From the NCBI GenBank assembly GCA_001784475.1, contig MFRE01000022.1:44234-108233 (forward strand): a stretch of DNA of 64,000 nucleotides. The letters are read 5' to 3'. Made by a program: the position numbers and the translations under genes. Source of the DNA: Candidatus Magasanikbacteria bacterium RIFOXYD2_FULL_41_14 (lineage in GTDB: Bacteria > Patescibacteriota > Patescibacteriia > Magasanikbacterales > GWA2-37-8). Below the pieces are notes generated by a model. The model had not been told where the DNA came from. It saw only the letters and a program-made list of their open reading frames with translations, and made no database searches. This document shows, in pieces, positions 1 through 60,965 of the stretch (position 1 is its first letter; each line of letters begins with the position of its first letter).

Positions 1-2430
1 CTTCTTTAAACCGCATCAGTCGGGTGCCTTGGGTGGCGCGACCAGAAGTGGCGATTGATTTGAACGGCAAACGGATTACTTGGCCGTGCGTGGAAATTAA
101 CATTAAATCTTTGGTGTCAGCATCAACCCGGTCAATAACGCGTCCGTGAATAAGCCAACCGGTTTTTTTGGTGATTTCCGTGGTTTTGATACCAGAGCCA
201 CCGCGTCCTTGCAAGCGATATTCTGCGAGTGGCGTGCGTTTGCCAACGCCATTTTCTCCGACAGTTAAAAATTCTAATGATTTGTTTTTGGGATCAACAA
301 TATCCATGCCAATTACTTCGTCATCGCTTTTTAGACGCATCCCGCGGACACCGGCGGCATTACGGCCCATTTCGCGTACATCTTTTTCGCGGAAACGAAT
401 CGCTAAGCCTGCTTTAGTCGCGATCATAATTTCGTCGTCGCCAGTGGAAGGGCGCACCCATTCTAAATTATCATCGGTTCTTAATTTAAGTGCGATTAAA
501 CCATTACGGCGGACATTGGCAAAATCTTCTATCGCAGATTTTTTGATGAGGCCCTTGCGCGTTACCATTACCAAGGATTGGGCGGTGCTTACATCCGACA
601 TGGCGAGCAAAGTGGTAACTTTTTCATTAGGGGATAGTTGCAAGAAATTGACCACTGCTTGGCCTTTGGCCGTGCGACTGGCTACTGGGATATCATAGGC
701 CATGAGTTGAAACACCCGCCCGCGATTGGTGAAAAACAAAATATTATCGTGGGTGTTGGTGGTAAGCAGGTGCTCCACTGTGTCTTCTTCTTTGGTGGTA
801 ACGCCAATCACTCCCTTGCCTCCGCGCGTTTGTTGGCGGAAAGTGTCGGGGTCAAGGCGTTTGATATAGCCATCAGAAGTTACCATTACAATCGCCGGTT
901 CATTGGGAATTAAATCTTCGGTGGTAAATTCCTTGACTCCATGCGCGATTATTTTAGTGCGTCTGGGTGTGGCGTAGCGCTCTTTAATTTCGCTAATTTC
1001 AGTTTTGATTATTTTTGAAATTCTGGATTCTGATGACAAAATTGATTCTAATTCTTTGATTAATTCTTTTTTCTCTTTTAATTCATCTTCTATTTTTTGG
1101 CGCTCTAAATTAGCCAACTGTTGGAGCTTCATTTCCAAAATAGCAGTTGCTTGGCGATCGGAAAATTTAAATTTGCTGATTAAGTTTTTCTTGGCTTCTT
1201 CTTTATCGCTACTGGCGCGAATTGTTTTAATAATTAAGTCAATTTTATCCAGCGCCATTTTTAGACCTTCTAAAATATGAGCGCGATCGCGGGCTTTTTC
1301 TAAATCAAACTCGGTACGACGACGAATAACCACGCGGCGGTGTTTGATAAATTCTTCTAAAATGTTTTTTAAATTCAAAACGCGTGGCTGAATACCATCC
1401 ACTAGCGCCAAGAGATTGACGTGGAAAGAGGTTTGTAAATCAGTGGTTTTGTATAAATGGTTTAATACTTTTTGCGGGTAGGCATCTTTTTTTAAATCAA
1501 TTACCACGCGTACGCCGTCTTTGTTGCTTTCATCGCGCAGATCGCGGATGCCTTCAATTTTCTTTTCTTGTACCAAATTGGCGATTTTTTCAATCATCTC
1601 TGCTTTGTTGACTTGATAGGGGACTTCCGTAACAATGATTTGGAATTGACCAGCTTTTGGTTCTTGAATTTCGGTTTGTGCGCGCATCACGATACCGGCT
1701 TTGCCAGTAGCATAAGCGGCTAAAATATCTTTTTTGTTATAAATAATGCCACCAGTGGGGAAGTCCGGGCCTTTAATAATTTCCGCTAATTCCTCAATAG
1801 TGGTTTTCGGTTCATCAATTAATCGGACAACACCATCGCAGAGTTCTCCTAAATTATGAGGGGGGATTGACGTGGCCATGCCGACCGCGATGCCCATAGT
1901 GCCATTGAGTAGCAAGTTTGGTAATTTTGCCGGCAGGACACTTGGTTCATTGTGCGAACCATCGTAGTTTGGGGTAAAATTAACTGTGTTTCTTTCAATG
2001 TCCGTTAGCATTTCTTCGGCTATGGCTTTTAATTTCGCTTCAGTATAGCGGTAGGCCGCCGCGCTGTCGCCGTCCATTGAACCGAAATTGCCTTGGCCAT
2101 CAACTAATGGGTGGCGCATGGCAAATTCCTGGGCCATACGAACCATAGAATCATAAATAGCGGCATCACCGTGTGGGTGATATTTAGCCATAACTTCACC
2201 GACGACATGCGCGGACTTGCGGTATTTGGCGTTATGGCGCAAACCCATAGTCCACATAGCGTAAAGAATACGGCGGTGAACTGGTTTTAAGCCATCGCGG
2301 ACATCTGGTAAAGCGCGCGCGACAATTACGCTCATGGCATATTCCAAATATGAACGTTTTACTTCGTCAACAATTGGAGTTAAAGTTAGCTTGCCGATGT
2401 CGCCTTTTGGTAGCGGAATTTTTTCTTGCA
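1..2430 (-). CDS. gyrA: DNA gyrase subunit A, N-terminal ~810 aa; 3' end of gene lies beyond window start
   Basis: Minus-strand translation from ATG at 2430 reads [59 protein letters not shown]..., the canonical GyrA N-terminus with the active-site Tyr region. The ORF is open to position 1. Plus-strand ORFs here are antisense artefacts. Confidence 0.9.
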
Positions 2431-2446
2431 TATATCAATTTTGAAA

Positions 2447-2866
2447 TCATTGTTTAAGGGTAGTAGAAACAGTGGCAGTTGCGGTTGTTGGCGTAGAAGA
2501 CGCGCTGGTGGGTGTGTTGGCAGTAGCTGAATTTTTTAGTAATTGAATTATTATTGCTATTTTTTCTTTTACTAATTCTTTTTTGGTGTCGTGATTTTTA
2601 GTCAATTTGAAAGCTTCTTCCCAGCTTTGTTGACCTTGGGTAAAAAGTTGTTTTTCTTTAGATTGGCCAAAATTAAGAATGGAAATTTGATTGTAAATGG
2701 AATAGCCCCAGAGAGTGGCGATAATTGTCCCCACCGCTATCACTAGAAACCAAAGCCAATTAGAAATCGCTTGTTTGGGAGTAGCTAGTTGACGCAAACG
2801 TGCCAAGTCCTCGGTTTTATCTTCGGTCGCCAGCATCTTTTTTTTATTTTTTTTAACAGATGCCAT
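2447..2866 (-). CDS. small membrane protein (one TM helix, Thr/Ala-rich C-terminal tail), unknown function
   Basis: 139-aa ORF in tight tandem with gyrA. Hydrophobic segment WLWFLVIAVGTIIATLWGYSIY. Confidence 0.45.
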   Translation of the reverse strand: MASVKKNKKKMLATEDKTEDLARLRQLATPKQAISNWLWFLVIAVGTIIATLWGYSIYNQISILNFGQSKEKQLFTQGQQSWEEAFKLTKNHDTKKELVKEKIAIIIQLLKNSATANTPTSASSTPTTATATVSTTLKQ

Positions 2867-2877
2867 ATTTGGCTATG

Positions 2878-3492
2878 TCAGTAATTTTTTTCTAAAATAT
2901 ATAATTTTCTGTCGTCTTGCGGTAGGTCTTTCTTTTTTATAATAATTTTTTTATCAGTTATTTCCGGTTTAATCCCCAACTCTTTTACAAAATTCTCAAC
3001 CGGCAATACGTTTTTATCAGTGTCGCAATGATAGGCGATCGGGATGACAATTCGGGGTTCTAATTCGTTGACAGTTTCAGCGGCTTTGTCTGGGTCAAGA
3101 TAAACATTTTTACCACCGACTGGCAATAATAAAATATCAATGTTGCCGAGTTTGTCAATTAAGGAGGTGTCTATTTTAGTTTTAGTTGTTCCCAAATGGA
3201 CAATAGACAACCCTTCGGCGTTAAGTTTGAAAATTATGCCGTCAGCATGTGGGTAGGCGTAAATCATCACTCCTTTAACTTCGCACTCTCCCAAGGTGTC
3301 TAGTACGAAAGGGTTTTGCATCAAGGTTATCGTCCCGTTTGGGCCATGGGAAAATAGGGCGATATTGGCTGCCAAATTTTTGGGGAAATCGCCTTGTTCA
3401 GGACGGTAGGGGTTTATCAGGATTACCACATCTTCGTCCAAGTTTTTGGTTTGGAGTTTGACACAGGTGTTGCCGAGCCAGGAAATATGCAT
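2878..3492 (-). CDS. metallo-beta-lactamase-fold hydrolase
   Basis: 204 aa, general MBL-fold architecture with His/Asp-rich patches (SHGP, YPHAD). No exact motif was verified. Confidence 0.55.
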   Translation of the reverse strand: MHISWLGNTCVKLQTKNLDEDVVILINPYRPEQGDFPKNLAANIALFSHGPNGTITLMQNPFVLDTLGECEVKGVMIYAYPHADGIIFKLNAEGLSIVHLGTTKTKIDTSLIDKLGNIDILLLPVGGKNVYLDPDKAAETVNELEPRIVIPIAYHCDTDKNVLPVENFVKELGIKPEITDKKIIIKKKDLPQDDRKLYILEKNY

Positions 3493-3515
3493 ATATAAAT
3501 ATTTGACATTTTAAC

Positions 3516-3533
3516 TGTGATAATTTTATCACA
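3516..3533. promoter_or_regulatory. 18-bp perfect palindrome TGTGATAATTTTATCACA in divergent promoter region (candidate operator)
   Basis: Read directly from sequence. Lies between the divergent gene starts at 3492(-) and 3592(+), next to a TTGACA hexamer at 3503-3508. Confidence 0.4.
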
Positions 3534-3591
3534 TTATCGGCTTGAAGACAAGGGGGTAATTAGAATATTTAATTGAAGAAATAATGTTTAT

Positions 3592-5751
3592 GTGATAAAA
3601 TATCGGTATAATTTTATGAGCGTTAAATTTAACTTTTTTCAGAATATTAAATCAATCTTAAAATTTTTTTTTGGAGTTGCCATTTTTGCGGTAATTCTTG
3701 TTTGGTTTTATTCTGATGCCAAACCGATTTGGCAAAATCCACGCATACCACCGCAAATTCAAACCGCGCAGGCGGTTACTTGGTATAATACCAGTTGGTT
3801 ATATCGAAAAACAATTACGATTGATTACACCAAGGTTTCTACCACTTTGGCAAATTTTCCAGTAATGGTGAGTACGACTGATGCTAATTTAGTAGCTTAT
3901 GCGTCTTCTACTGGCGCTGATATTTTGTTTACTGATTCAAGTGGTACCAAATTAAATCACGAAATTGAAAGTTATACCAGCGCTACCGGTAAGTTAATCA
4001 CTTGGGTGAAGGTGACGAGCTTGTCTAATTCGGCAAATACTATTCTTTATATGTATTATGGCAATACGGGGGCAGCTGATCAGCAAAATATTACGGGGAC
4101 ATGGGATTCAAATTATGTGGGCGTATGGCACATGAAAGAAAATCCGTCCGGTTCGGCGCCCCAGATGAAAGATAGCACGACTAATGCCAATCATGGCACT
4201 ACTCAAGGTTCAATGCCTTCCGGATCCTTGGTAAACGCGCAGATTGGCGATGGTTTGGATTTTAATGGTTCCAGTTATTATGTCTCTCTTCCGGTTACAT
4301 CCTCGCTTAATATCACCGGGGCGATTACTGTTGAGACCTGGGTTTACGCGGATGCTCTTTCGTCGGCTAGAAGGTTTGTGTCTAAAAACAACACCGTAAC
4401 CAAATCTTGGGAACTTAATTTTGAATCAGCTGTTGGTGGTTTAACTACCATGAGAGTTTTTGATGGCGGAACAATAAAACGTACGCAAGAAGCGGCAGCA
4501 ATGACGGTCGGATCTTGGTTCCATTATGTTGGTGTATTTGATCCCAGCACTGCCGTGATAATTTATAAAAACGGCTCACAAAGCGGAGCTCTAACTTCCG
4601 GAATTCCGGCAGCGCAGAACGACAATCCCAATATCGCGGTATTATTTGCTCGCAGTCCCTATGCTGGCTGTTTAAATTGTTATTTAGATGGCAAAATGGA
4701 TGAAGTGCGCGTTTCCAATGTGGCCCGCTCCGCCGGTTGGATTTTAACCGAATATAACAATCAATATTCACCGTCGACCTTTTATAGTATAGAAAGTACA
4801 GCACAAACCCCACCATTTTATGATCAAATTTATTATAAATTTTTTAATAATACTGATTCTACTGATGTTGGTTTAAAACTGGCGAACCAAAATTTACCAG
4901 CTACTTTATCGTCCGCTGGCGACCCGTTCCGTTTGCGCTTGGGTTTGCATGTAACCGGCAGTCAAATAGACGCTAGTGGCCAAAGTTTTAAATTACAGTT
5001 TGCGGAAAAATCAGGGGATTGTGACGGCACTTTTTCCGGTGAAAGTTATGCTGATGTAACCGGAGCGACCGTAATTGCGTATTATGATAATGCCACCCCT
5101 AATGATGGTGATAGTTTAACTATAAACGCGGGTGACCCAAATATTGGTAATAATGTGATTGAACAGACATATGAAGAGGCCAATAATTTTACCAATTCCG
5201 TGGGCGCAATCGCAATCGGCGAGGAAGGTTTGTGGGATTTTTCTTTATACGATAATGGCGCTACCGCCAATACGTCATATTGTTTGCGGTTAATTAAATC
5301 AGATGGTAATAATATTGATAGTTATACCGAAATACCGGAAATAATCACTGCGTCTGGTGTGTCGCCGATAGTGTCGGTGTCGGTTCAAGATGGCATTATT
5401 AATTATGGGTATTTGCCCGTTGGTTCCAGTACTACCACGATTGCCGTTGCAGATTCTCAAACGGTTACTAACGATGGTAATGTGGATATAGATTTGGGTA
5501 TCAAAGGTTCAACGTCCACGCCGGGCAATTGGACGCTGGGTTCGCAGGCAGGGGCAGACCAATATGTCCATGAATATTCGGTTGACGTCGGTGACACTTG
5601 GGTGCCACTTACTGCCGATTATCAACTTTTGGTTCCGGGAGTGCCGCCAGATGCCGGCGGTGTTATTGATTTTAGAATTCAAGTGCCAAGTTCAACTTCG
5701 GATTATAGCACGCAAAATGTTGATATTACTATTTTGGCGGTTCAGTCATAG
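3592..5751 (+). CDS. large secreted/membrane-anchored protein: N-terminal TM/signal, DUF2341-like region, concanavalin-A/LamG-like lectin region, C-terminal ~130-aa beta-rich module
   Basis: 719 aa. WYNTSWLYRKTITIDYTKVSTTLANFPVMV is typical of DUF2341. The middle part matches LamG/ConA-like glucanase-fold proteins. The start may instead be the second Met at 3616. Confidence 0.55.
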   Translation: MIKYRYNFMSVKFNFFQNIKSILKFFFGVAIFAVILVWFYSDAKPIWQNPRIPPQIQTAQAVTWYNTSWLYRKTITIDYTKVSTTLANFPVMVSTTDANLVAYASSTGADILFTDSSGTKLNHEIESYTSATGKLITWVKVTSLSNSANTILYMYYGNTGAADQQNITGTWDSNYVGVWHMKENPSGSAPQMKDSTTNANHGTTQGSMPSGSLVNAQIGDGLDFNGSSYYVSLPVTSSLNITGAITVETWVYADALSSARRFVSKNNTVTKSWELNFESAVGGLTTMRVFDGGTIKRTQEAAAMTVGSWFHYVGVFDPSTAVIIYKNGSQSGALTSGIPAAQNDNPNIAVLFARSPYAGCLNCYLDGKMDEVRVSNVARSAGWILTEYNNQYSPSTFYSIESTAQTPPFYDQIYYKFFNNTDSTDVGLKLANQNLPATLSSAGDPFRLRLGLHVTGSQIDASGQSFKLQFAEKSGDCDGTFSGESYADVTGATVIAYYDNATPNDGDSLTINAGDPNIGNNVIEQTYEEANNFTNSVGAIAIGEEGLWDFSLYDNGATANTSYCLRLIKSDGNNIDSYTEIPEIITASGVSPIVSVSVQDGIINYGYLPVGSSTTTIAVADSQTVTNDGNVDIDLGIKGSTSTPGNWTLGSQAGADQYVHEYSVDVGDTWVPLTADYQLLVPGVPPDAGGVIDFRIQVPSSTSDYSTQNVDITILAVQS

Positions 5752-5789
5752 TGGTGCTGTGGATAAGTACGCCCGCGCGCGGGGGGGGG

Positions 5790-5818
5790 TTGGAGATAAA
5801 AAAGTTATGTGGTATAAT
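5790..5818 (+). promoter_or_regulatory. sigma70-like promoter (TTGGAG-17-TGgTATAAT) preceded by a G9 tract
   Basis: -35 at 5790-5795, extended -10 TGGTATAAT at 5810-5818, G9 homopolymer at 5781-5789. Confidence 0.5.
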
Positions 5819-5848
5819 ATAGTTGTTAATTATTTAAATTTATTTTTT

Positions 5849-6343
5849 ATGAAAAATAAAAAATTGGATTTAGTTATAGGCGTGTTATTTGTGGTAGCGC
5901 TTGCGTTTGGGGTGTCGGCGCAAGGGGCTGATACCGGCACGGTATCAGCGACAGTAACAGTTCAAAATGTTTCATTAACTGTTTCCGATGGCACTGTTGC
6001 TTATGGCACACAATCAGCCGGTGCTATGACGAGCACGTTACTTACCGGAGATATCCAGACAGTTACTAACAATGGTAATATAACAGAAAATTTTAACATC
6101 AAAGGCCAAGATTCCGCCAACTGGACACTGGCTTCATCTAGTAGCACCGACCAGTATACCCACCAATTTTCCACTACGACTGGTTCCTCTTGGACTTCTC
6201 TAACTACCAGCTATGCCACTTTGGACACAAGCAAAGCGGCTGCCGCCACTTCTACTTTTGATTTGCGCATTTATGTGCCTTCCGCTTCCACCAACTATAC
6301 TTCTCAGAGTGTTGATGTTACCGTACAGGCGGTAGCCAGTTAA
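5849..6343 (+). CDS. small secreted protein (signal peptide), paralogous to the C-terminal module of the 3592-5751 protein
   Basis: ATG at 5849 gives MKNKKLDLVIGVLFVVALAFGVSAQG (signal peptide). The mature part aligns with the last ~130 aa of the upstream protein (TVTNDGN...NWTLxS...DQY.H....DVT.QAV). The listed ORF 5564..6343 is an upstream extension through the intergenic region. Confidence 0.55.
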   Translation: MKNKKLDLVIGVLFVVALAFGVSAQGADTGTVSATVTVQNVSLTVSDGTVAYGTQSAGAMTSTLLTGDIQTVTNNGNITENFNIKGQDSANWTLASSSSTDQYTHQFSTTTGSSWTSLTTSYATLDTSKAAAATSTFDLRIYVPSASTNYTSQSVDVTVQAVAS

Positions 6344-6353
6344 TAACTTTTTT

Positions 6354-6950
6354 ATGCGTAAAATCATAGTAATGGTTGGATTGATAAGTTTAGCTTTGAC
6401 TATACCACTTTTTGTTTCGGCGCGGGTGGGTGTGGGTGTTGGCGCTGGTAAAATTCAAATGACTGAACAATTAAAACCGGGCAAAACTTACGAATTGCCG
6501 GTTTTGCCGATTTTAAATACCGGTGATGAATTTTCCGCGTATGAAGCTACCGTGGAATATCATGAAAATATTCCCCAAATGTGGCCGAAGCGCGAGTGGT
6601 TTAAATTTACTCCTCAAACTTTTGAATTAGAACCGGGGCAGGTAAAAAATGTAAAAGTGGAATTGAGTTTGCCGGTAAACGCCAAGCCGGGAGAATACCG
6701 TGCTTATTTAGAAGGTCATCCGGTTAAAAAAAGTCGCGCTACCGGCGGGGCGGCGGTGGGTGTGGCTGCGGCGGCTGATTTGCGTTTTACGGTGGTGCCG
6801 GCCAATATATTGGCTGCTTGGTATTATAAAATAACAACTTTTTACAGTCGCTATCATCCTTACGATACGATCGGGTTGGCTTTGCTCGCGTCCGCTTATC
6901 TATTTTATTGGGTGAAAAAGAATTTTAAGTTTCAGATCGCGAAAAAGTGA
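6354..6950 (+). CDS. secreted protein with signal peptide and C-terminal TM anchor, unknown function
   Basis: 198 aa. N-terminal MRKIIVMVGLISLALTIPLFVSA, C-terminal hydrophobic helix plus a basic tail. Confidence 0.5.
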   Translation: MRKIIVMVGLISLALTIPLFVSARVGVGVGAGKIQMTEQLKPGKTYELPVLPILNTGDEFSAYEATVEYHENIPQMWPKREWFKFTPQTFELEPGQVKNVKVELSLPVNAKPGEYRAYLEGHPVKKSRATGGAAVGVAAAADLRFTVVPANILAAWYYKITTFYSRYHPYDTIGLALLASAYLFYWVKKNFKFQIAKK

Positions 6951-11126: not shown

Positions 11127-12347
11127 ATGTTGAGCGACAAAGTCAGCAAGCAAGATTTTAAAAGTATTTTGCAAGACCACCCGATTAATGTTCCCAAAGT
11201 AGGAGATATTGTTACGGGTAAAGTTTTGTCCGTGGACAAGGGCGAGGTTAGAATTGATGTGGAAGGCGTTACTACTGGTATTGTACGTGGTCGCGAATTA
11301 TTCGCGGAATCACGTGAACACGCCAACTTAAAAACAGGCGATGAAGTAGAGGCGACGGTGATGGAAATGGAAAATGAAAATGGCGATATGGAACTTTCTT
11401 TCCGTGTGGCCGGATATCAGCGTGCCTGGGATAATTTGCGCAAGTGGGCTAAGGATTGCCTTACTATTAAAGCTAAAGTTACTGGCGCGAATAAAGGCGG
11501 GCTTATCATGCAGGTGGAGGCTATGCCTGGTTTTATGCCAGTGTCACAACTTGACCCGGAACATTATCCGCGCGTTACTGGCGGTGACAAATCTCGTATT
11601 TTAGAAAAATTACAAGAATTAATCGGCAAGGATTTAGAAGTTAAAGTGATTGATGCCGATGAAAAAGAGGAAAAATTAATTGTTTCCGAACGCGCTGTTT
11701 GGGAAGATGCACAAAAAGCGGTTTTGGAATCATACAAAATTGGCGATATTGTTAATGGCGAAGTGAGTGCGCTTACTTCATTTGGAGCATTTTTGAAATT
11801 TGGCGAAGGTTTGGAAGGTTTGGTTCATATTTCTGAAATCGCTTGGCAGAGAATTGAACATCCACGTGATTTGTTAAAAGTGGGTGATCATGTGAAAGCT
11901 CAGATAATTCAATTAGATAAGTCCAAGATATATCTGTCCTTGAAACGCTTGGTAAGCGATCCGTGGAAACAGGTCGGAGAAAAGTATAAAATTAACGATA
12001 AGGTTAAAGGTAAGATTATCAAAATTGAACCGTTTGGTTTAATGGTGGCGCTCGACGAAGATATTCACGGTTTGGCCCATGTTTCGGAATTATCCGATCA
12101 GCCAGTGGGTAATATTACCGAGAAGTTTAAGATCGGCCAAGAAGTGGAGTTTGAAATTATGAACATTGAAGCGATTGAGCACCGATTGGGCTTGCGTCTC
12201 GCTGGTGTTGCTGGTAAAGCGCCGAAAGCACCAAAGGTAAAGAAATCCGAAAAGGCCAAAGCAAAAGAAGATGAAAAGGATGGAGACAATGTGTTGGCTG
12301 ACGGCGAAGAAAAAGAAGAAAAAAAAGCAGACAAAAAAGCCGAGTGA
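11127..12347 (+). CDS. rpsA: 30S ribosomal protein S1 (short form with Lys-rich C-terminal tail)
   Basis: 406 aa with repeated S1-domain-like units (GDIVTGKV..., GDIVNGEVSALTSFGAFLKF..., GDHVKAQII...). Confidence 0.8.
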   Translation: MLSDKVSKQDFKSILQDHPINVPKVGDIVTGKVLSVDKGEVRIDVEGVTTGIVRGRELFAESREHANLKTGDEVEATVMEMENENGDMELSFRVAGYQRAWDNLRKWAKDCLTIKAKVTGANKGGLIMQVEAMPGFMPVSQLDPEHYPRVTGGDKSRILEKLQELIGKDLEVKVIDADEKEEKLIVSERAVWEDAQKAVLESYKIGDIVNGEVSALTSFGAFLKFGEGLEGLVHISEIAWQRIEHPRDLLKVGDHVKAQIIQLDKSKIYLSLKRLVSDPWKQVGEKYKINDKVKGKIIKIEPFGLMVALDEDIHGLAHVSELSDQPVGNITEKFKIGQEVEFEIMNIEAIEHRLGLRLAGVAGKAPKAPKVKKSEKAKAKEDEKDGDNVLADGEEKEEKKADKKAE

Positions 12348-18936: not shown

Positions 18937-19482
18937 ATGAACAAGCCAATAATTTTAAAAGGTCCGCGAGTTACTTTGCGACCGATAAAATTAAGTGATG
19001 CCAAAGATTATGTTGGGTGGTTTCGTGATAAAGAAGTTGTGAAATTTTTAGGCAATAAATTATTGAACATTAAAGAAAAAGGCGTGCGGGATTATTTCAT
19101 TAAAGAAAAAGCAAAAAAAGACGTTATGTTGTGGGCGATTACCGTAGTAGGGGCAGGACAAATTGGCAATGTTCATTTGGGTCTAGATAAAAATAATAAA
19201 CGAGCATCATTAGGACTGGTTATTGCCGATAAGAAATATTGGGGTCAAGGTTATGGGCCAGAAACTTTAAAAATTTTAGGTGATTATGTTTTTAAAAAAT
19301 TAAAATATAATCGATTAGAATTAACAGTATTCACGAATAATAAACGGGCGGTTAGCGCATACAAAAAAGTTGGGTTTAAAGTAGAAGGTACTTTGCGGAA
19401 ATACATTTATGCTTATGTGTTAAAAAAATATTGTGATGAATATGTAATGGGTATTTTAAAAGAAGAATGGCTTACTAAATAA
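18937..19482 (+). CDS. GNAT-family N-acetyltransferase (RimJ/RimL-like)
   Basis: 181 aa, WGQGYGPETLKILGDYVF...RLELTVFTNNKRAVSAYKKVGF. Confidence 0.75.
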   Translation: MNKPIILKGPRVTLRPIKLSDAKDYVGWFRDKEVVKFLGNKLLNIKEKGVRDYFIKEKAKKDVMLWAITVVGAGQIGNVHLGLDKNNKRASLGLVIADKKYWGQGYGPETLKILGDYVFKKLKYNRLELTVFTNNKRAVSAYKKVGFKVEGTLRKYIYAYVLKKYCDEYVMGILKEEWLTK

Positions 19483-21383: not shown

Positions 21384-22640
21384 GTGGCCACTGGTATTGG
21401 TTTTGAAAATAATGCACACGCAGAAGGACAAGTGGATGGTAAAAATGTTGGTAAAAAAGAGAAACCAGATTTAACTTCTCCAGAAGTAATTGGTGGCCAG
21501 GAACAAAAAGAAACAAAGAAGGATTATGAAAAAATTATTGCTGATATTCTGCGGGAAACATTTTTTTGGGTAAATAATCCTGAATATTCAGGAGCTGAAA
21601 CTATAGATGGTGCAGAAAAGATAAATCAAAGAATTCAACAGTTGTTGAAATCTAAAAATCCGTCAATATATATTTTTGGAGAAAATCATCAAAATGATTT
21701 TTGTGAAGATTTTTTTCTTGATATATTAGAAGCTGACCCAGGAGCCAAAACTGTTGTTGAAGAGGCCTTAGACCACCCTGATGAGAAAGAACATGAAGTA
21801 GGGTTGTTATCAACCACTTTCTTTGGGCGCGAAGGTTATGAAGAGAAATTAAAGGAGTTATTATCCAGAAGAAACATCGCTAGGGTAATTTTACAGCATC
21901 CTTTTAATCCAGCCAAAGAGGCAGATAGTAAAATTTTACCATTTATTAAAGAAGGTCGGGTGCATATTCTGGTGGGGGGTGCTCACTCTATGCTTGCGCC
22001 TGGCGAACAAGATACAAAAACACAAACGTCGCAGTTACACCTTGATTCTGATGACGTTCTTTTAAAAACACCCCAGCAAGATTATTTTTTTGATTTATAT
22101 AAAAAATACGGAGCGGTAGCAATTAAGTATATAAATATTTATAATCTAGCGAGGGAGTGTAATATCAGAATATTAGATCAAATATTACCAGCATTAAAGA
22201 CGGGTGAGATTACCGTTGAAAAGGCAGTACAATTTTTAGAAAGACAAATTGGAAGATACACTGATCAATTGAGTTCAACAGATCCGAGGTTGGTTTGGCA
22301 GGATGAGGGTAATAGTGGTTTTGGAATACTGACTTCAAAAATTGAGGAGCTCAATTTTGATATTTTGGAATCTAGCAATCTTGAAGCCTTATTTAATTAT
22401 CCCCCATTTCGGGATTTGTTTATGTCCGGTGATACTAGTTTTGCAATGATTTTAAATGGTGTAAGAGTATCTAGTGGAGATGTCGTTGTAGATTTTGTGG
22501 TTTATGATATTGGTAATAAGCGTATGGTTGTAACATATAATAGAAAAAATCCTAAAGATGGGGTGCTTGAGGTTGATAAAATTGTAAATTTTGATCTAAC
22601 TAATGAAAATGGTAAATGGAAATATAAATTAGTAGATTAG
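21384..22640 (+). CDS. hypothetical protein, possible TraB/ChaN/Tiki-like fold
   Basis: 418 aa, GTG start, AT-rich, no signal peptide. IYIFGENHQND resembles the GxxH motif of that superfamily. Weak evidence. Confidence 0.35.
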   Translation: MATGIGFENNAHAEGQVDGKNVGKKEKPDLTSPEVIGGQEQKETKKDYEKIIADILRETFFWVNNPEYSGAETIDGAEKINQRIQQLLKSKNPSIYIFGENHQNDFCEDFFLDILEADPGAKTVVEEALDHPDEKEHEVGLLSTTFFGREGYEEKLKELLSRRNIARVILQHPFNPAKEADSKILPFIKEGRVHILVGGAHSMLAPGEQDTKTQTSQLHLDSDDVLLKTPQQDYFFDLYKKYGAVAIKYINIYNLARECNIRILDQILPALKTGEITVEKAVQFLERQIGRYTDQLSSTDPRLVWQDEGNSGFGILTSKIEELNFDILESSNLEALFNYPPFRDLFMSGDTSFAMILNGVRVSSGDVVVDFVVYDIGNKRMVVTYNRKNPKDGVLEVDKIVNFDLTNENGKWKYKLVD

Positions 22641-22677: not shown

Positions 22678-23421
22678 ATGGAGATTATCAAGACAAAATC
22701 GTTTAGTTTGGCAGTTGTAACTACCGGTGATAAAAATTCCAACAAGTTGTCAATTTTAATGCCCGGTAGATTAGACACGAAAGATTATTGGAATTTTGAA
22801 AGCCACGCCAAAGTTTTGGCTGGTAAAGGTTTTTTTGTGGTTGCTTTTGACCCACCCGGCACTTGGGAAAGCCCGGGTGGTATTGAATTGTGTACCGTCA
22901 CTAATTATATTAAAGCGGTTAATGAGCTGATTGAATATTTTGGGAATAAGCCAACCTTGCTTGTTGGTCACAGTCGGGGAGGGGCGACCGCGGCCTTGGT
23001 GGCGGCTTCCAATTTGCTTGTTAAAGGCATGGTTTTGTTAATGGCCAGCTATAGCGCATCTTCTGCACCGCCTGACGAAATCATTGCCAGAGGATTTAAT
23101 CTTGACTATCGCGATTTGCCACCGGGACAATCAAAAAGCAAAGAGCAAAAAGAATTTCGTCTGCCTTTAAATTATCGAAAAGATGGCGAGCAATATAATT
23201 CCGCGCAGGCGCTAAAAAATTGTAGCACTCCTAAATTGTTAGTTTATGCAACTTATGATGAATTTCGTTCTTCTGAAACAGTAGAAGATATTTTTAGGAT
23301 TTTGCCAGAGCCGAAAATGTTAAAAAAGTTTGATTGTAAACATGATTACCGTTATTATCCTGAGGTGGTGGCCGAGGTAAATAAGGGGATTGAAATTTTT
23401 GTGGATAAATTTGTTAATTAA
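22678..23421 (+). CDS. alpha/beta-fold hydrolase
   Basis: 247 aa, nucleophile elbow VGHSRGG. Confidence 0.6.
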   Translation: MEIIKTKSFSLAVVTTGDKNSNKLSILMPGRLDTKDYWNFESHAKVLAGKGFFVVAFDPPGTWESPGGIELCTVTNYIKAVNELIEYFGNKPTLLVGHSRGGATAALVAASNLLVKGMVLLMASYSASSAPPDEIIARGFNLDYRDLPPGQSKSKEQKEFRLPLNYRKDGEQYNSAQALKNCSTPKLLVYATYDEFRSSETVEDIFRILPEPKMLKKFDCKHDYRYYPEVVAEVNKGIEIFVDKFVN

Positions 23422-23437
23422 CAAATTTATTATTGGT

Positions 23438-24709
23438 TTACTGATTATTTTTTTTGAAAATTTCCTCAAAATTTCCAATTGATTTTAAAAATCTTTCCGG
23501 ATGGGCTTTAACTTTTTTTGATAGTTCTTTTCTTTTAAACCATTTAATCGCCGCTACTTCACTTTTTTGAATTTTAAATTGTGAGATCGGTTTATCTATC
23601 GTTGCGAAAAATCTTTGGGAAAAGAAATTGTGTTTGCCGGTATAGCGGATTTTTTCTCCTTTTATTATTTTAACATTTTTTAGTCCAATTTCTTCTTCGG
23701 TTTCTTTGATGATGTTGGATTCGTATGTTTCGCCTTGGTCGTTGGTCCCAGCGACTGCCACACCCCATTTACCAGGGTCGTGACTTTTATTAAACGCTCT
23801 CTGGGCAAGCAAAATATTACCTTTTGAGTTTTGAACCCACAAGGCGGACACGCGATAAATATCTTTTTGTTTTACATCTTCTCGTTTTTTGTGTCCGATA
23901 ATTTTGTCATTTTTATCAACAATAATTATTTTTGGTTTTATGGTTTTTTTATATTCTTCTAGAAATAATTGTAAAGTTTTTTTCAGATTATTTTTTTCTA
24001 TTTTACTTAAATTTAAAACTTTTTTTGTTTGACGTAGGAGTATCGCTTTTTTAACGTATTGGATCCCCAAAAAATTAGGGCAACATTTTGCTAAAGCGCC
24101 AGGGATATTCTTTTTTTTAACGGTTACCCCCTTACTGAGTAAGAGACAATTACTCATGTTAATAATATAATTTATCCATTTTCGCGGTTCTCTATTAAAT
24201 ATATTCCATCCTGGATTTGCGCTGGTTGCGTGTTCGTATTCAAATTGCAGTTCGTTTGTTAGGTCTCGTTGTATTATTTTTTTGACTTCTGGTATTAGTT
24301 TAATAACATTTTTTCCATACAATATTCGTGATTGTTTTTTTAATTTTATTAATCCCAAATTTCCAATGAATCTCGTCGCTTGATTATTATTTTTTATCCT
24401 GTTGTTAAAATCTGCGTCAAGCGTAGTATAGCACTGAATATCAATTGAATATTTTTTTGATAATTTGTCGATTTCTGTTTCAGAAATATTAACAGCACTT
24501 CTAACCAAAGCCATGACATCGTAATCGCTGTAGCCGTCAATAAAGTCATAATTGCCGTAGCTACCAACCGCTAATAAGGAAACTAAATTTTTACCAAGTT
24601 TTTTTCTTAGTAATTTTACAAGCGCTCGTTCCATTTGTTTTAGTTGGGAGCGGTGTGTGTCCATATTTGTAATACACAATGTATCGTTAATTTCTAAGTA
24701 TGAGCCCAT
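23438..24709 (-). CDS. fusion protein: N-terminal minimal nucleotidyltransferase (KNTase-like) plus C-terminal Nudix hydrolase
   Basis: GSYGNYDFIDGYSDYDV (GS...hDhD NTase motif). C-terminal Nudix box GTNDQGETYESNIIKETEEEIGL. The region before the Nudix box resembles IDI-type Nudix. Very AT-rich. Confidence 0.6.
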   Translation of the reverse strand: MGSYLEINDTLCITNMDTHRSQLKQMERALVKLLRKKLGKNLVSLLAVGSYGNYDFIDGYSDYDVMALVRSAVNISETEIDKLSKKYSIDIQCYTTLDADFNNRIKNNNQATRFIGNLGLIKLKKQSRILYGKNVIKLIPEVKKIIQRDLTNELQFEYEHATSANPGWNIFNREPRKWINYIINMSNCLLLSKGVTVKKKNIPGALAKCCPNFLGIQYVKKAILLRQTKKVLNLSKIEKNNLKKTLQLFLEEYKKTIKPKIIIVDKNDKIIGHKKREDVKQKDIYRVSALWVQNSKGNILLAQRAFNKSHDPGKWGVAVAGTNDQGETYESNIIKETEEEIGLKNVKIIKGEKIRYTGKHNFFSQRFFATIDKPISQFKIQKSEVAAIKWFKRKELSKKVKAHPERFLKSIGNFEEIFKKNNQ

Positions 24710-25953
24710 AGTAATTTAAAAAAATTATAAATTGGATGTGAAAAAAATTTATTAAAATTCTTTTTAAGTGTTTTAGAATCTTCGTGGGTTTCGCGTTTGG
24801 CCAATTTAAAGGCGTATTTTTTATTAATTTGCGCCCAAGCGACCGACATCTCGTCGCTTTTAGCAGGTTTTTTGACTTGTATTTTATCGCACTGCCTAAA
24901 TAGATTGTGATTTACGGACAGCCACAGTGAAATTATTCTTACCCCTAAAAAGTTTTCTGGCTCAGCATTTATTAAAGACGGGATTAATAATTTTGGAAAA
25001 ATTAAATCCAAGTCATCTAAATTCCCAAGCACAAAGGCCATATTCCAAGTAATGTACAGACTTGCCCAGTTTTGGCTTGTGTTAACAGTTGGGAATAGGT
25101 TATTTTTTTCAGAGATCGATTGGTAAAAAATATCATCGTTCTTTGTCGGAATAACATTTTTGTTTTTAAACATGGCTAAGGGAGGGTCACACCTTAGATC
25201 TTCGGATAGTGCATAAGCAGAAATCGAATTAGTTTTAAAGTCGTTGTGATATTCGGTAATACCAGCTTCGTAAATATTTATACGCACTAATTCATTTATA
25301 TGTTCTATGTTATTTTTTAAAATTGGTGACAGTAGCTTGTATTCTAAGTAATTTATTTTTTTATCACGTAGCATTTTTTTGGCTTCTCCGATTGTTAAAT
25401 GTGAACCCGCCAGACCACGTCTTATGCGGAAGTAAATCATCAGCGGGTCCAGCGAGAAAGCCTTGGCGATTTTGAAAAAGTCTCTTGAAATTTTTAGCGC
25501 GCGCATAAGAGCATTTAACGAATGGGTAGTGTCAATTCCGCATGCCCTCTCCTTAATTTTGTAATGGTCTTGTACTTCAACAAAGAAGTCGTGGCTATTA
25601 CACATGGTGGCGGTCAAAGCTTCCAGAACGAACATGACGTGCACTGATCGGGCAATATGCTCGAATGGCCGAAACCAATTATTTTTAAGCGCCAAGTCCG
25701 CGAATTCAACTATGGCCGGATGTTTTGATGCCACGCCTTTTTTTATATTATTAAACATTGGTTGCAAATCTTGCGGTTCAGAAATAATATCCTGAAAAAA
25801 TTTGCGCATGCGCTCGTTTTTTGTTTTTAAGTCGTTGAGTTTTAGTTCTGCGATAACCCCCTTCATTATTTGGGGGTTGGTTGTTATATTTTTCTCCAAA
25901 CCAAAAGCTACCATGGTTTTGTCAAAAATTTCGCTCGCTTCTTTTAGTGGCAT
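24694..25953 (-). CDS. hypothetical 419-aa protein, overlaps the downstream NTase-Nudix gene by 16 nt
   Basis: No recognisable motif. Very AT-rich. Co-oriented with the next gene, suggesting translational coupling. Confidence 0.4.
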   Translation of the reverse strand: MPLKEASEIFDKTMVAFGLEKNITTNPQIMKGVIAELKLNDLKTKNERMRKFFQDIISEPQDLQPMFNNIKKGVASKHPAIVEFADLALKNNWFRPFEHIARSVHVMFVLEALTATMCNSHDFFVEVQDHYKIKERACGIDTTHSLNALMRALKISRDFFKIAKAFSLDPLMIYFRIRRGLAGSHLTIGEAKKMLRDKKINYLEYKLLSPILKNNIEHINELVRINIYEAGITEYHNDFKTNSISAYALSEDLRCDPPLAMFKNKNVIPTKNDDIFYQSISEKNNLFPTVNTSQNWASLYITWNMAFVLGNLDDLDLIFPKLLIPSLINAEPENFLGVRIISLWLSVNHNLFRQCDKIQVKKPAKSDEMSVAWAQINKKYAFKLAKRETHEDSKTLKKNFNKFFSHPIYNFFKLLWAHT

Positions 25954-26229
25954 ATTGGCAAAGAGTATTTTTGTTTTAAGTATTTATTTTTTTATCTTCC
26001 GCCCGCACTCCTCCGTCTCATCTGGCCGTTTGTAATCATATTCCGAGCGATAAGTCGTCCCAATTTCGGGCGTGGACACTTCAAAAATATCGCAATCGGT
26101 AATCGCCTGGTAGCGGTGTTTTTAGTCAAATTATGGTATAATGATTTTAAGCTTAGTATATCAATTCTACTATATTTACGAGAAAATCACAATATTTTAT
26201 AAAATTGGTTTGTGTTTTCGAGAATAGAT

Positions 26230-27443: not shown

Positions 27444-27449
27444 AGCGTT

Positions 27450-27551
27450 TGTCATTCCGAGTGAAGCGAAGCGCAACCGAGGAATCCCTTGAAGCTGATA
27501 ATCACACAGATGGCTGCGTTAAGGGATCCCTCGGCTACGCTCGGGATGACA
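27450..27551. repeat. MITE-like element (GTCATTCCGAG...AAGGGATCCCTCGGCTACGCTCGGGATGAC)
   Basis: Right arm is identical over ~36 bp to the copy at 30212-30247. Confidence 0.6.
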
Positions 27552-30155: not shown

Positions 30156-30247
30156 TGTCATGCTGAGCGTAGTCGAAGTATCCCTTAAATTTGACAGCAA
30201 ATTAAATGTTGGCGTTAAGGGATCCCTCGGCTACGCTCGGGATGACA
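30156..30247. repeat. MITE-like element (GTCATGCTGAGCGTAGTCGAAGTATCCCTT...AAGGGATCCCTCGGCTACGCTCGGGATGAC)
   Basis: Imperfect ~30-bp TIRs. The overlapping plus ORF 30160..30618 is spurious and antisense to trxB. Confidence 0.6.
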
Positions 30248-56137: not shown

Positions 56138-56254
56138 GTTGTCATCCCGACCGTAGTGGAGGGATCCCTTAACGCCATCATTTTACGTATTAACTAATTT
56201 AAGGGATTCTTCCCCGACGCAAGGTCGGGATAAACTGTTACACTCAGAATGACA
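56138..56254. repeat. MITE-like element (GTCATCCCGACCGTAGTGGAGGGATCCCTT...AAGGGATTCTTCCCCGACGCAAGGTCGGGAT...AATGACA), itself flanked by a 22-bp inverted repeat
   Basis: Flanking IR: TCCAATTTCCAATCAATGTCAAA (56101-23) and TTTGACATTGATTGGAAATTGGA (56287-309). Confidence 0.55.
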
Positions 56255-58857: not shown

Positions 58858-59940
58858 TTATAGTGATACTTTTATCAAGCCGTTATTAGCATTTAGTTTT
58901 ATTGTCACCCCATTTTTTATTTTGCTTTTTTCAATTTCTGGGCAAATAATGTAAGGTTTTTTTAGTTCACGAGCGATAATTGACATATGCGAAAGACAGT
59001 TGCCATTTTTGGTGATAACACCGGCTGCTTTTCTTAGGAAAGGCAAATGTTTTAATGTCATGAGTGGGCATACTAATATGTCATTTTTGTTAATTGAATC
59101 TTTGCTGGGATCTTTGATGGTTCTTTTTTTTCCGATTGCGACTCCTGGGCTGGCGCTAGTTCCACTAAGATAAATTGATTTTTCTTTTGGGATTTGTGTG
59201 TAAGTAAAAACTTTTTTTATTTCTCTATCGTAATCATTTAAAATAAATTTGTTATTGGTATAAATTCTGAATTCAAAGTATCCCTCAATATATTTTTTTT
59301 GATTAAATTTAATGTGCGATTTTTTTAGAAGATTTCTTTTTGAAATACTATTCGCCTGGAGACGTTGTGCGATTCTCATCACCCGTTTTTTTTCTATCAG
59401 TGGGATGTTTTGAGAAAAATACCATTTTTTAAAGTTGTAAATAAAATATGTCGGTTTATGATTTTGCGTTCCATAAATTAGTTGCCACAAATCGCCGCTG
59501 ATTATTTCCCCAACTATTTGGTTCTTTGTTATTACGATAATGCCGGAATAAGCAATTTTATGATAGGGGAATATATGTAGCGGGCCGTAGTTTTTGGATG
59601 TTATATTTTGTTTTTTAATCCAAAGCAAAGCTTCTTTAACTGTTTTTTGTCTAGCGCGTTTTTTGTAAAAGTTTTTTTTGTTTGGAAGTATTCGCCAGTC
59701 AAATATTTTTGTTTTCTTTATCTTCTCTAATATTTTTGGATTGTTTATAAAAGTCTCCAGTTCTATTTTAAGGCAGTGTTTACACTCAAACCCTAAAATT
59801 TTTGACAGTTTTTCCAGTCGAATTTCTTTAGTGCGATCTTCATACTCAATCGACTTGGCCCGTTTACTGCCAATAATTTTAAATAATTCTGTTAAAGGCG
59901 GTATTGACTCTCTGAGAATTTTTTCAGGCGTTAATTTCAT
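58858..59940 (-). CDS. protein with C-terminal PEP-utilizing-enzyme mobile (swivel His) domain; N-terminal ~250 aa unknown
   Basis: C-terminal GTSASPGVAIG...NGNCLSHMSIIARELKKPYIICPE matches the PEP-utilizers motif. Extremely Lys/AT-rich. The start overlaps the upstream gene stop (ATGA). Confidence 0.55.
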   Translation of the reverse strand: MKLTPEKILRESIPPLTELFKIIGSKRAKSIEYEDRTKEIRLEKLSKILGFECKHCLKIELETFINNPKILEKIKKTKIFDWRILPNKKNFYKKRARQKTVKEALLWIKKQNITSKNYGPLHIFPYHKIAYSGIIVITKNQIVGEIISGDLWQLIYGTQNHKPTYFIYNFKKWYFSQNIPLIEKKRVMRIAQRLQANSISKRNLLKKSHIKFNQKKYIEGYFEFRIYTNNKFILNDYDREIKKVFTYTQIPKEKSIYLSGTSASPGVAIGKKRTIKDPSKDSINKNDILVCPLMTLKHLPFLRKAAGVITKNGNCLSHMSIIARELKKPYIICPEIEKSKIKNGVTIKLNANNGLIKVSL

Positions 59941-60965
59941 ATTTTATGCAAAATTGTCATGTGTTTCTCTGTTTCTTTGATTATTTTTCTGGCGTTGGCT
60001 ATTGTATAGGCAGGGCGTCTGCCGAAAGCTGTTTCGTGGCATAGCATTATGCCGTCAACACCAGCCATTACCATGTTAGTCAAGTCGGATATTTCTGATC
60101 GATTAGGTATATATGAATTTATCGTACTGTCTAATATTTGAGTAGAGATTATTATTTTTTTTTGTTTTTTCTTGATCAAGCTAATTATATTTTTTTGTAG
60201 TATTCCCATTTGTTCAAATGGTACACTGACACCGACATCGCCTCTTTCCCACAATATCATAGAGTAATTATTATCATCACAGATGGTATCTAATTCTTCC
60301 GAAGTAATTTTTTTGGTAATCTTGATAATTATTTTTATGTGTTCTTTGTTCGGAATCATTGCTTTTAGCGCTTCATTAATTTTGAGGTTAAAAAATGGAA
60401 TCGCGATGTAGTTTGGGCGTGTATCTAAGGCCAAAGGAACAGTTTTTTGGTAAAAATTCAAAATATGTTTTTCATCCAGATATTGAAAGCCAAAGATATT
60501 AAATGGTTTTTTGAAAAAAATCGTTCCCGTATTTAATATTTTAGCTTTCACTGTGTCTTGGTCGATAATGTTAATTATTTGTATGGCTATTTCTCCATCG
60601 CCAATAGTTATTGTCTGATTAAGTTTAACAATTTCTCCCAGCCTGGCCACATTAACAGGGACGAACTCATTGCAATCCATTGTGTGGCTTGCTGATTTAA
60701 ACAAAAATTCTTCATTTTCTTGGACGGCGAACGACTTTGTTTCAAAATCTCCCAAACGCGGTTTTAACGCGGGAAGATCAATTAAAATTTTAGTATCGGC
60801 ATTAAGGCTATAAATTATCTCTTGGCTGTTTTTAATATTGGTTCTATTTTCTTCTAATGTTCGATAAGCAAAATTATACCTAAGAACATCAGCTCCGGCG
60901 AGAATTATTTTTTTTATTTTATCTTCAGATAGCGAGTTGACCCCGAGTGAGGCAATTATAAGCAT
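59937..60965 (-). CDS. pyruvate-kinase-like TIM-barrel domain protein (no C-terminal PK domain)
   Basis: ILAGADVLRYNFAY, MILWERGDVGVSVPFEQ and ISTQILDSTINSYIPNRSEISDLTNMVMAGVDGIMLCHETAFGRRP align with the PK A-domain motifs. Confidence 0.6.
   Translation of the reverse strand: MLIIASLGVNSLSEDKIKKIILAGADVLRYNFAYRTLEENRTNIKNSQEIIYSLNADTKILIDLPALKPRLGDFETKSFAVQENEEFLFKSASHTMDCNEFVPVNVARLGEIVKLNQTITIGDGEIAIQIINIIDQDTVKAKILNTGTIFFKKPFNIFGFQYLDEKHILNFYQKTVPLALDTRPNYIAIPFFNLKINEALKAMIPNKEHIKIIIKITKKITSEELDTICDDNNYSMILWERGDVGVSVPFEQMGILQKNIISLIKKKQKKIIISTQILDSTINSYIPNRSEISDLTNMVMAGVDGIMLCHETAFGRRPAYTIANARKIIKETEKHMTILHKI

Follow-up and report, generated by a model that had tools for sequence, protein, structure and literature searches.

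The 64,000-nt stretch of DNA analysed here, hereafter the window, comes from the Candidate Phyla Radiation (CPR) bacterium Candidatus Magasanikbacteria bacterium RIFOXYD2_FULL_41_14 (contig MFRE01000022.1, positions 44,234 to 108,233). Our analysis concerns two of its minus-strand open reading frames (ORFs): gene A (24694..25953), listed as a 419-aa ORF, and ORF B (23438..24709 in its longest reading, 423 aa), a chimera composed of a relic 5' end, a nucleotidyltransferase (NTase) domain and a Nudix hydrolase domain. The two ORFs converge on the thrS gene, a 418-aa ORF and an alpha/beta-hydrolase gene, and diverge from a SpoU/TrmH-type methylase gene (trmH). An earlier note on this DNA had given the same positions and strand for both ORFs, together with a 16-nt overlap between their longest readings, all of which we confirmed, and had interpreted the pair as a translationally coupled, horizontally acquired module resembling defence or toxin systems. 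Its observations were confirmed in part and its interpretation was supported in part; the coupled defence or toxin module did not survive the analysis. We favour, with moderate confidence, a different reading, in which the region immediately downstream of thrS is a hot spot of gene turnover that has received two independently inserted genes, rather than a dedicated two-gene system.

Residues 16-255 of B (23945..24664, minus strand) make up an NTase cassette, consisting of a Pol-beta-type NTase domain and a helical domain similar to those of ANT(3'')(9), in agreement with the earlier assignment of a KNTase-like domain with a helical extension. This half bears G49-S50-x11-D62-x-D64; its catalytic motif occupies 24515-24565, and D90, which is the third acidic residue, falls within 24431-24457. 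The hG[GS]-x9-13-Dh[DE]h motif of the Pol-beta-like NTase superfamily and the third carboxylate on the next strand are both present. G49, S50, D62 and D64 (D62-Y-D64) are invariant in 13 of 13 members of the NTase family and position 90 is D or E in all 13, eight of which match PF01909. The family is small, with 20 proteins among 5.8 billion, the named member coming from a CPR bacterium. Apart from B, its members are standalone proteins of ~240 aa or fragments; only B is fused to a Nudix domain, and the only full-length match to B among the 5.8 billion proteins is B itself. Most standalone relatives share 50-59% identity with the NTase half of B and the most distant (P0030) shares 39%, and no homologue of this half was found in plasmid, phage or IMG/VR collections. 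Both A and B match records of the source bacterium (RIFOXYD2_FULL_41) at 100% identity, and identical B and A proteins recur in independent re-assemblies (Logan, JGI, ENA). A literature search for proteins of CPR bacteria in which an NTase is fused to a Nudix domain gave no relevant result. Standalone homologues begin at the position of B M16, and in a structure modelled for the NTase half of B alone, residues 1-16 appear disordered (predicted local distance difference test score, pLDDT, < 50). The true start of B is therefore likely to be M16 (ATG at 24662-24664), which would leave a 29-nt gap, and no overlap, between the stop codon of A and the start of B.

Residues 256-423 of B (23438..23944, minus strand) form a Nudix domain, as the earlier note had proposed; PF00293 matches residues 287-407 with 58.7 bits, compared to a cut-off of 21.1. 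The Nudix box, GTNDQGETYESNIIKETEEEIGL (residues 321-343, 23681-23749), reads GX5EX7KETxEExGL, which agrees with the consensus GX5EX7REUXEEXGU except that R is replaced by K. The earlier suggestion of a resemblance to isopentenyl-diphosphate isomerase (IDI) was borne out, since IDI, YfcD and DR0079 are the nearest relatives by sequence (3hyq, 2fkb, 1q27, NF002995), and the N-terminal preamble IIVDxxDxxIG is common to B and the YfcD/DR0079/type-1 IDI branch. Nonetheless, B is excluded as a type-1 isopentenyl-diphosphate isomerase: the NSVCGHP segment of type-1 IDI is VAVAGTN in B, such that the catalytic Cys is replaced by Ala and the metal-binding neighbouring His by Thr, and the equivalog scores, like all NCBIfam scores for this domain, fall below their cut-offs (59.6 bits compared to 127 for NF002995; 37.1 compared to 105.8 for TIGR02150). 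By contrast, the hydrolase box (KETEEE) is intact, like REAEEE of YfcD. We conclude from these residues that the Nudix half is of the hydrolase type and is not an isomerase. The same Nudix module, of roughly 160 aa, recurs in fused form in many CPR proteins with 41-68% identity (mostly 55-62%), its partners being alpha/beta hydrolases, GDSL esterases, peptidase S51, cupins, CYTH domains and kinases; fusions of peptidase E to Nudix are widespread.

To place this chimera in a history, we used a set of thrS-anchored metagenome loci, the closest of which, L065, has thrS DNA that is 80.7% identical to that of the window. Synteny upstream of thrS (PilB-like, g380, GNAT and thrS genes) is kept in several relatives and ends at the thrS 3' end; none of the thrS-anchored relatives, L065 included, has gene A, the NTase gene, the gene for the 418-aa protein or the alpha/beta-hydrolase gene. 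The minus strand of L065 carries a gene for a 174-aa protein that we labelled cupin-like from its sequence, an ORF directly downstream of it, p125, which starts MGSYLEINDALRIT, and a peptidase-E gene with an internally deleted Nudix domain. Just upstream of A in the window is a pseudogene relic (26012..26132, minus strand) of the C-terminal 37 residues of this cupin-like gene, which is intact in L065 (86% over 121 nt by blastn; 92% identity over 37 aa). One edge of the relic marks the upstream boundary of the A insertion, at ~26011, and the other is a second breakpoint toward trmH, at ~26133. A further relic, a 44-nt patch (24668..24711, minus strand), is homologous to the start of L065 p125, with 75% nucleotide identity and 12 of 14 residues identical, and the similarity is lost on either side. 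The patch encodes codons 1-14 of B (MGSYLEINDTLCIT) as well as the final codons and stop codon of A, the last five codons of A (LWAHT*, 24694-24711) coming from resident DNA; a tblastn search with B residues 1-34 matched L065 12589-12458 (E 0.002). The junction between NTase and Nudix, ...EEYKKTI|KPKIIIVD, lies at 23915-23959, and similarity to L065 stops exactly there: from KPK on, the window and L065 share about 87% DNA identity, rising to 92.6% over 27 nt at the Nudix 3' end. From this similarity, we take the window Nudix domain to be orthologous to the one in the resident gene for a peptidase-E-Nudix fusion. In L065, the orthologue of that gene (11442-12206, minus strand) has lost the Nudix core, its first ~20 and last ~15 residues being joined in frame, which suggests that the locus is unstable in both lineages. 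Separately, the 699 nt between thrS and the peptidase-E gene in L065 (10744-11442) have a GC content of 55%, as compared to 43% for the locus, with no convincing ORF and no Rfam match.

We propose that the ancestral operon had the order cupin, p125, peptidase-E-Nudix. In the window lineage, a segment of ~1.3 kb containing only A would have inserted upstream of the p125 start codon, separating it from the cupin gene, and the NTase gene would have replaced the body of p125 together with the peptidase-E domain, both junctions being in frame. In this way, the resident Nudix domain would have remained complete and acquired the NTase as a fusion partner, the two meeting at the interdomain linker. 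The cupin gene would have been reduced to 121 nt when another rearrangement brought in the trmH side. The NTase-Nudix fusion, which is unique to the window genome, is explained by this in-frame replacement of peptidase E by an NTase cassette. The same comparison removes the support that the 16-nt overlap had seemed to lend to translational coupling: codons 1-14 of B are a relic of p125, and with a start at M16 a gap of 29 nt follows the A stop codon, so the overlap is a by-product of a relic start codon and is not evidence of coupling. Moreover, since the 44-nt resident relic sits between A and the NTase, the two genes did not arrive as a single contiguous block.

The standalone relatives of the NTase provide a second view of B. 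In seven independent genomic contexts, a B-type NTase gene is never accompanied by A, whereas a gene for a Nudix or HD hydrolase is found upstream in four. A Nudix gene is directly upstream of the NTase gene in L048/L049 and two genes upstream in both L001 and L053; in L050, a SpoT-type HD_4 hydrolase gene is upstream and overlaps the NTase gene. The upstream hydrolase is absent from L051/52, L054/55 and L056; we considered the 167-aa upstream gene of L056 as a further HD_4 hydrolase and rejected it, because its product is not homologous to the L050 HD_4 protein. The contents of the seven contexts thus link the NTase to nucleotide pyrophosphohydrolases, and not to A, and a partnership between NTase and pyrophosphohydrolase is plausible. 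As a separate observation, the L001 genes form a run on one strand (2081-6735) comprising an NTP_transf_2 gene (230 aa), DUF2164, a Nudix gene (138 aa) and two genes for unknown proteins, followed by a second Nudix gene (149 aa), a gene for a 210-aa unknown protein and the B-type NTase gene P0002; this run may be a larger NTase/Nudix gene cluster.

Bifunctional enzymes that make and break nucleotide-containing products include NadM-Nudix (NF003791), GlnD (NTase and HD domains) and Rel/SpoT (NTase-fold synthetase and HD hydrolase). In these, as proposed for B, a domain that transfers nucleotidyl or pyrophosphoryl groups is combined with a phosphohydrolase acting on nucleotide-linked products within one polypeptide or operon. 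We propose that B is a lineage-specific chimera and probably a working bifunctional enzyme translated from M16, given that no stop codon interrupts its ORF despite stop-rich DNA, that neither catalytic site lacks a residue, that the two halves meet exactly at a domain linker and that the fusion recreates an NTase-plus-hydrolase pairing found elsewhere as separate genes. The ANT(3'')(9)-like half would hold two Mg2+ ions through D62, D64 and D90 and would transfer a nucleoside monophosphate from a nucleoside triphosphate to a small molecule, at one of its hydroxyl or phosphate groups, a protein target being less likely. The Nudix half would cleave a nucleoside-diphosphate-X compound, perhaps the product or a by-product of the NTase, such that both activities may bear on one nucleotide-containing compound, which the NTase would make and the Nudix half would break down or clean up. 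We consider a shared compound most likely because standalone NTases repeatedly have an upstream gene for a Nudix or SpoT-type HD hydrolase. An accidental fusion might therefore have been tolerated, or even favoured, for recreating the NTase-hydrolase pairing.

This history, and the function that we attach to it, must be weighed against several observations. The ancestral gene order is read from one close relative, L065, whose own Nudix domain is internally deleted; we did not find an intact cupin-p125-PepE-Nudix operon, and the context of P0014, which encodes a PepE-Nudix fusion, is not syntenic. The Nudix half of B (33.1% GC) is about as AT-rich as the NTase half (31.0%), as compared to 44.7% GC for the cupin relic, so composition cannot separate resident from imported DNA. 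A and B are, after all, adjacent and co-directional, and it is possible that they are co-transcribed or have acquired an ad hoc functional link. Three of the seven NTase contexts lack a hydrolase, and the partner Nudix subfamilies differ, being MutT-like in L048 and L001 and IDI/YfcD-like in L053; given these differences and the hydrolase-free contexts, we regard the association of NTase and hydrolase as suggestive but not proven. Lastly, the closest NTase relative, P0339 (77% identity; a 998-nt ENA contig), is also a chimera, in which the NTase lacks its last ~15 residues and runs into a C-terminal piece of ribosome recycling factor, ~50 residues long. The NTase gene has thus been seen twice at rearrangement junctions, and in-frame chimeras around it may be accidents.

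This last point raises the possibility that B is a non-functional scar, a chance in-frame chimera that arose by illegitimate recombination and is decaying, with selection acting on A only or on neither gene. The uniqueness of the fusion, the chimeric nature of P0339, the presence of several relics at the locus (the cupin fragment and the p125 start) and the loss of the Nudix core from the L065 orthologue all favour such a scenario. Nonetheless, the 423-codon ORF is uninterrupted in stop-rich DNA of 32% GC, the catalytic residues of both domains are all intact, the NTase half keeps the invariant positions of its family along with 50-59% identity to most standalone relatives, and the junction lies exactly at the interdomain linker, which preserves a complete Nudix domain. 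The recurrence of NTase-Nudix adjacency elsewhere also provides a functional rationale for the fusion. We therefore consider a decaying scar unlikely.

The structural similarity of the NTase half might suggest a different function, that of an antibiotic or xenobiotic O-nucleotidyltransferase of the aminoglycoside- or lincosamide-resistance type, joined to an unrelated house-cleaning Nudix domain from the resident gene. Structural comparison values for the NTase half were highest for ANT(9) and ANT(3'')(9) (13.7 and 13.5, respectively), followed by HalB (10.6), KNTase (10.0), MNT (about 10) and HEPN domains (8-10, with matches to the C-terminal helical half only). Both ANT matches span the two subdomains over about 203 residues, and the two-domain fold (NTase and helical) of these AadA-family enzymes (6sxj, 7uy4) can be superposed on the NTase half. 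However, the identity to ANT enzymes is only 15-18%, and the NCBIfam model NF045972 (ANT(3'')-I) scores 15.2 bits (E 0.013) compared to a cut-off of 500, far below membership at the family level. Unlike ANT enzymes, the NTase family comprises only ~20 sequences and is associated with Nudix/HD genes, an association that a resistance function would leave unexplained, and it has no plasmid homologues. We regard a resistance enzyme as quite unlikely. A more ambitious extension of the pairing, to which we give a similarly low weight, is that the CPR-specific NTases and their Nudix/HD partners are new writer/eraser enzyme pairs of ultra-small symbiotic bacteria, whose object would be either a nucleotide signal or a target that has been nucleotidylated; B would then be the first of them to combine both activities in a single chain. 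Such pairs may resemble Rel/SpoT, or toxSAS toxins with small-alarmone-hydrolase antitoxins. Separately, under the same proposal, A may represent a new fold family that takes part in copper or redox stress and moves between bacteria and archaea.

The product of gene A is predicted to be a soluble all-alpha protein of an uncharacterised family. The AlphaFold2 model has a pLDDT of 88.6 and a predicted template modelling score of 0.90, and no transmembrane segment is predicted. In line with the earlier note, which saw no recognisable motif in the protein, searches of Pfam, NCBIfam, PADLOC and PHROG were blank. The model had no fold match among PDB and viral structures, a PDB profile search gave no meaningful match, and phage, plasmid and IMG/VR collections contained no homologue. 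The family is well defined nonetheless, with 163 homologues of equal length (~420 aa) and 37-63% identity, and 617 clusters at E <= 1e-3 in a representative library clustered at 50% identity. The alignment contains numerous invariant polar and aromatic residues, including the motifs NIYEAG (25261-25278) and WxSLYxTWNMAF (25033-25068); FPKLLIPS (24976-24999) and RxISLWLS (24916-24939) are also family motifs. A soluble all-alpha protein with so many invariant polar residues is probably an enzyme or a ligand-binding protein. Of 185,579 species genomes, 41 contained a member; the family is represented in CPR bacteria, DPANN archaea, marine gammaproteobacteria and Gemmatimonadota as well as in a small number of other groups. 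It probably spreads horizontally, with CPR bacteria, DPANN archaea and some other phyla, including the marine gammaproteobacteria, exchanging the gene. Ten long distant relatives of A gave a single weak Pkinase match in Pfam, and cluster names were uninformative.

We surveyed 48 A-family loci by BLAST clustering of 566 neighbouring ORFs and a Pfam scan of 143 neighbours (123 + 10 + 10). No neighbour of A is conserved across lineages in these loci, and none of the 48 contains a B-type NTase gene. The neighbours are heterogeneous housekeeping, transport or redox genes. Genes for proteins of 530-576 aa that seemed to recur upstream of A proved mutually unrelated (Wzy, ArgRS, DNA ligase, NhaP, an aromatic hydroxylase and ABC1 kinases), and Nudix genes near A (in L003, L029 and the P0073 contig) were rejected as partners, because their frequency is roughly that expected by chance. 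In eight of 11 gammaproteobacterial loci, A lies within a copper-resistance cluster. One layout has a CueR-like MerR gene, an amine oxidase gene, A and a P-type ATPase gene (the ATPase having YHS and HMBD domains); the other has genes for a multicopper oxidase, CopB and cytochrome c, then A, DUF411 and CusC-CusB(CusF)-CusA. The copper-island loci are L030, L031, L032 and L044 (Oleispira, Bermanella), L005, L006 and L019, and L041. We also noted ABC1/UbiB-type atypical kinase genes within ~2 kb of A in L026, L035 and L039 (Peribacteraceae, Gemmatimonadota and Longimicrobiales), three distant lineages, and a weak protein-kinase match in P0303, a 1425-aa relative in the A family. The copper-resistance context in gammaproteobacteria points to a stress- or metal-related role for A rather than to a partnership with B. 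It seems best to regard A as an accessory gene in its own right, with copper/redox stress as the sole recurrent contextual lead.

These two surveys bear directly on the proposal that A and B together constitute a horizontally acquired, nucleotide-based defence or toxin-antitoxin module, in which the NTase would make or attach a signal, the Nudix domain would remove it and A would be the effector or sensor, following the logic of Hailong, MNT-HEPN or CBASS-like systems. The two-gene unit does not recur, with no co-occurrence in the 48 A loci or the seven NTase contexts, and the resident relic between A and the NTase is at odds with joint arrival. HalA of Hailong is a transmembrane DNA-gated channel that is paired with the HalB NTase (PMC13434031), whereas A is soluble and has no match to HalA; Hailong also has no Nudix domain, and the pairing of A with an NTase is not conserved across genomes. 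Compared to MNT-HEPN, B is fused in halves as in ANT enzymes, is twice the size of MNT and has no Rx4-6H RNase motif, this HEPN motif being absent from the helical half and from B residues 1-258 as a whole, and not conserved in the NTase family. A CBASS CD-NTase was likewise rejected, with neither a cGAS/DncV-like fold nor a significant profile match. The best structural matches are ANT enzymes and not HalB, MNT or CD-NTases. PADLOC gave no match to A and only weak, unconvincing domain-level matches to B, the genes beside A are not defence genes, and phage, plasmid and viral collections are empty of homologues of either protein. We conclude that a defence or toxin module is very unlikely, and we return to the reading of two independent insertions.

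The insertions raise the question of whether the locus is an AT-rich island, as had been claimed for a block comprising A, B, the 418-aa gene and the alpha/beta-hydrolase gene. Low GC content holds for B (31.8%, z -2.66) and for the 418-aa ORF (34.5%, z -1.86), is weak for A (36.6%, z -1.26, with normal GC3) and fails for the hydrolase gene, whose 39.9% is ordinary. Furthermore, the GNAT acetyltransferase gene at window 18937-19482 is as AT-rich as B (31.9%, z -2.63) and yet is syntenic beside thrS in several relatives, with 77% amino acid identity in L065, so low GC alone is not diagnostic of foreign origin here. As to horizontal acquisition, the spot has been remodelled horizontally: synteny stops at the thrS 3' end, and the inserted genes are absent from the syntenic position in close relatives, with relics of genes that are intact in L065. 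A discrete island was not supported, however; the window has no tRNA genes and no Rfam matches, there are no meaningful repeats flanking the block, and no recombinase or integrase is encoded among the ORFs listed for 17-32 kb.

The remaining features of the locus flank A and B. The alpha/beta-hydrolase gene (22678..23421, plus strand; 247 aa; Pfam Abhydrolase_1 at 1.4e-14) is convergent with B and separated from it by 16-17 nt. Its product is 41% identical over its full length to residues 174-417 of P0062, a Nudix-alpha/beta-hydrolase fusion, which provides a Rosetta-stone link between the hydrolase and the adjoining Nudix module. An AT-rich palindrome, ATAAATTTGTTAATTAACAAATTTAT (23402-23432), covers the hydrolase stop codon and the spacer up to the B stop codon; it may be a bidirectional terminator, although a consensus terminator scan did not call it. 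The 418-aa ORF (21384..22640, plus strand), which L065 lacks, gave nothing above noise in PDB, Pfam, NCBIfam and PHROG searches, and nothing that we saw suggests that it works together with A or B. On the other side, the divergent intergenic region between A and trmH (25954..26211) holds the cupin relic and promoter-like minus-strand sites at 26063-26035 and 26192-26164, which are consensus matches only.

Elsewhere in the window, a 34-nt repeat, GTTAAGGGATCCCTCGGCTACGCTCGGGATGACA, occurs three times, at 27518-27551 (plus strand), 30214-30247 (plus strand) and 56140-56173 (minus strand), with 0, 0 and 3 mismatches, where the chance expectation is 0. Two of these sites have an upstream inverted partner, TGTCAT[TC]C[CT]GAG, near 27452 and 30159, and this pairing suggests palindromic elements of about 90-100 nt that resemble miniature inverted-repeat transposable elements or repetitive extragenic palindromic sequences. 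These elements artificially lengthen the ORFs starting at 27449 and 30160, which have the peptide VKGSLGYARDD in common. Two adjacent minus-strand ORFs at 58858-60965 (360 and 342 aa) have the lowest GC content in the window (31.5% and 33.6%) and are a candidate for a further accessory block.

Our analysis cautions against inferring a defence module in a CPR genome from genes that are adjacent, overlapping and AT-rich. It also draws attention to two unstudied protein families. The A family is well conserved, and our searches of solved and viral structures gave no relative of it; the neighbourhood of the NTase family predicts coupled nucleotidyl transfer and pyrophosphohydrolysis chemistry. If our reconstruction is true, an imported NTase cassette took the place of one domain in a resident fusion gene and thereby gained the Nudix domain as its partner, and the locus would be a clean, base-resolved case of the birth of a bifunctional gene in a streamlined CPR genome.

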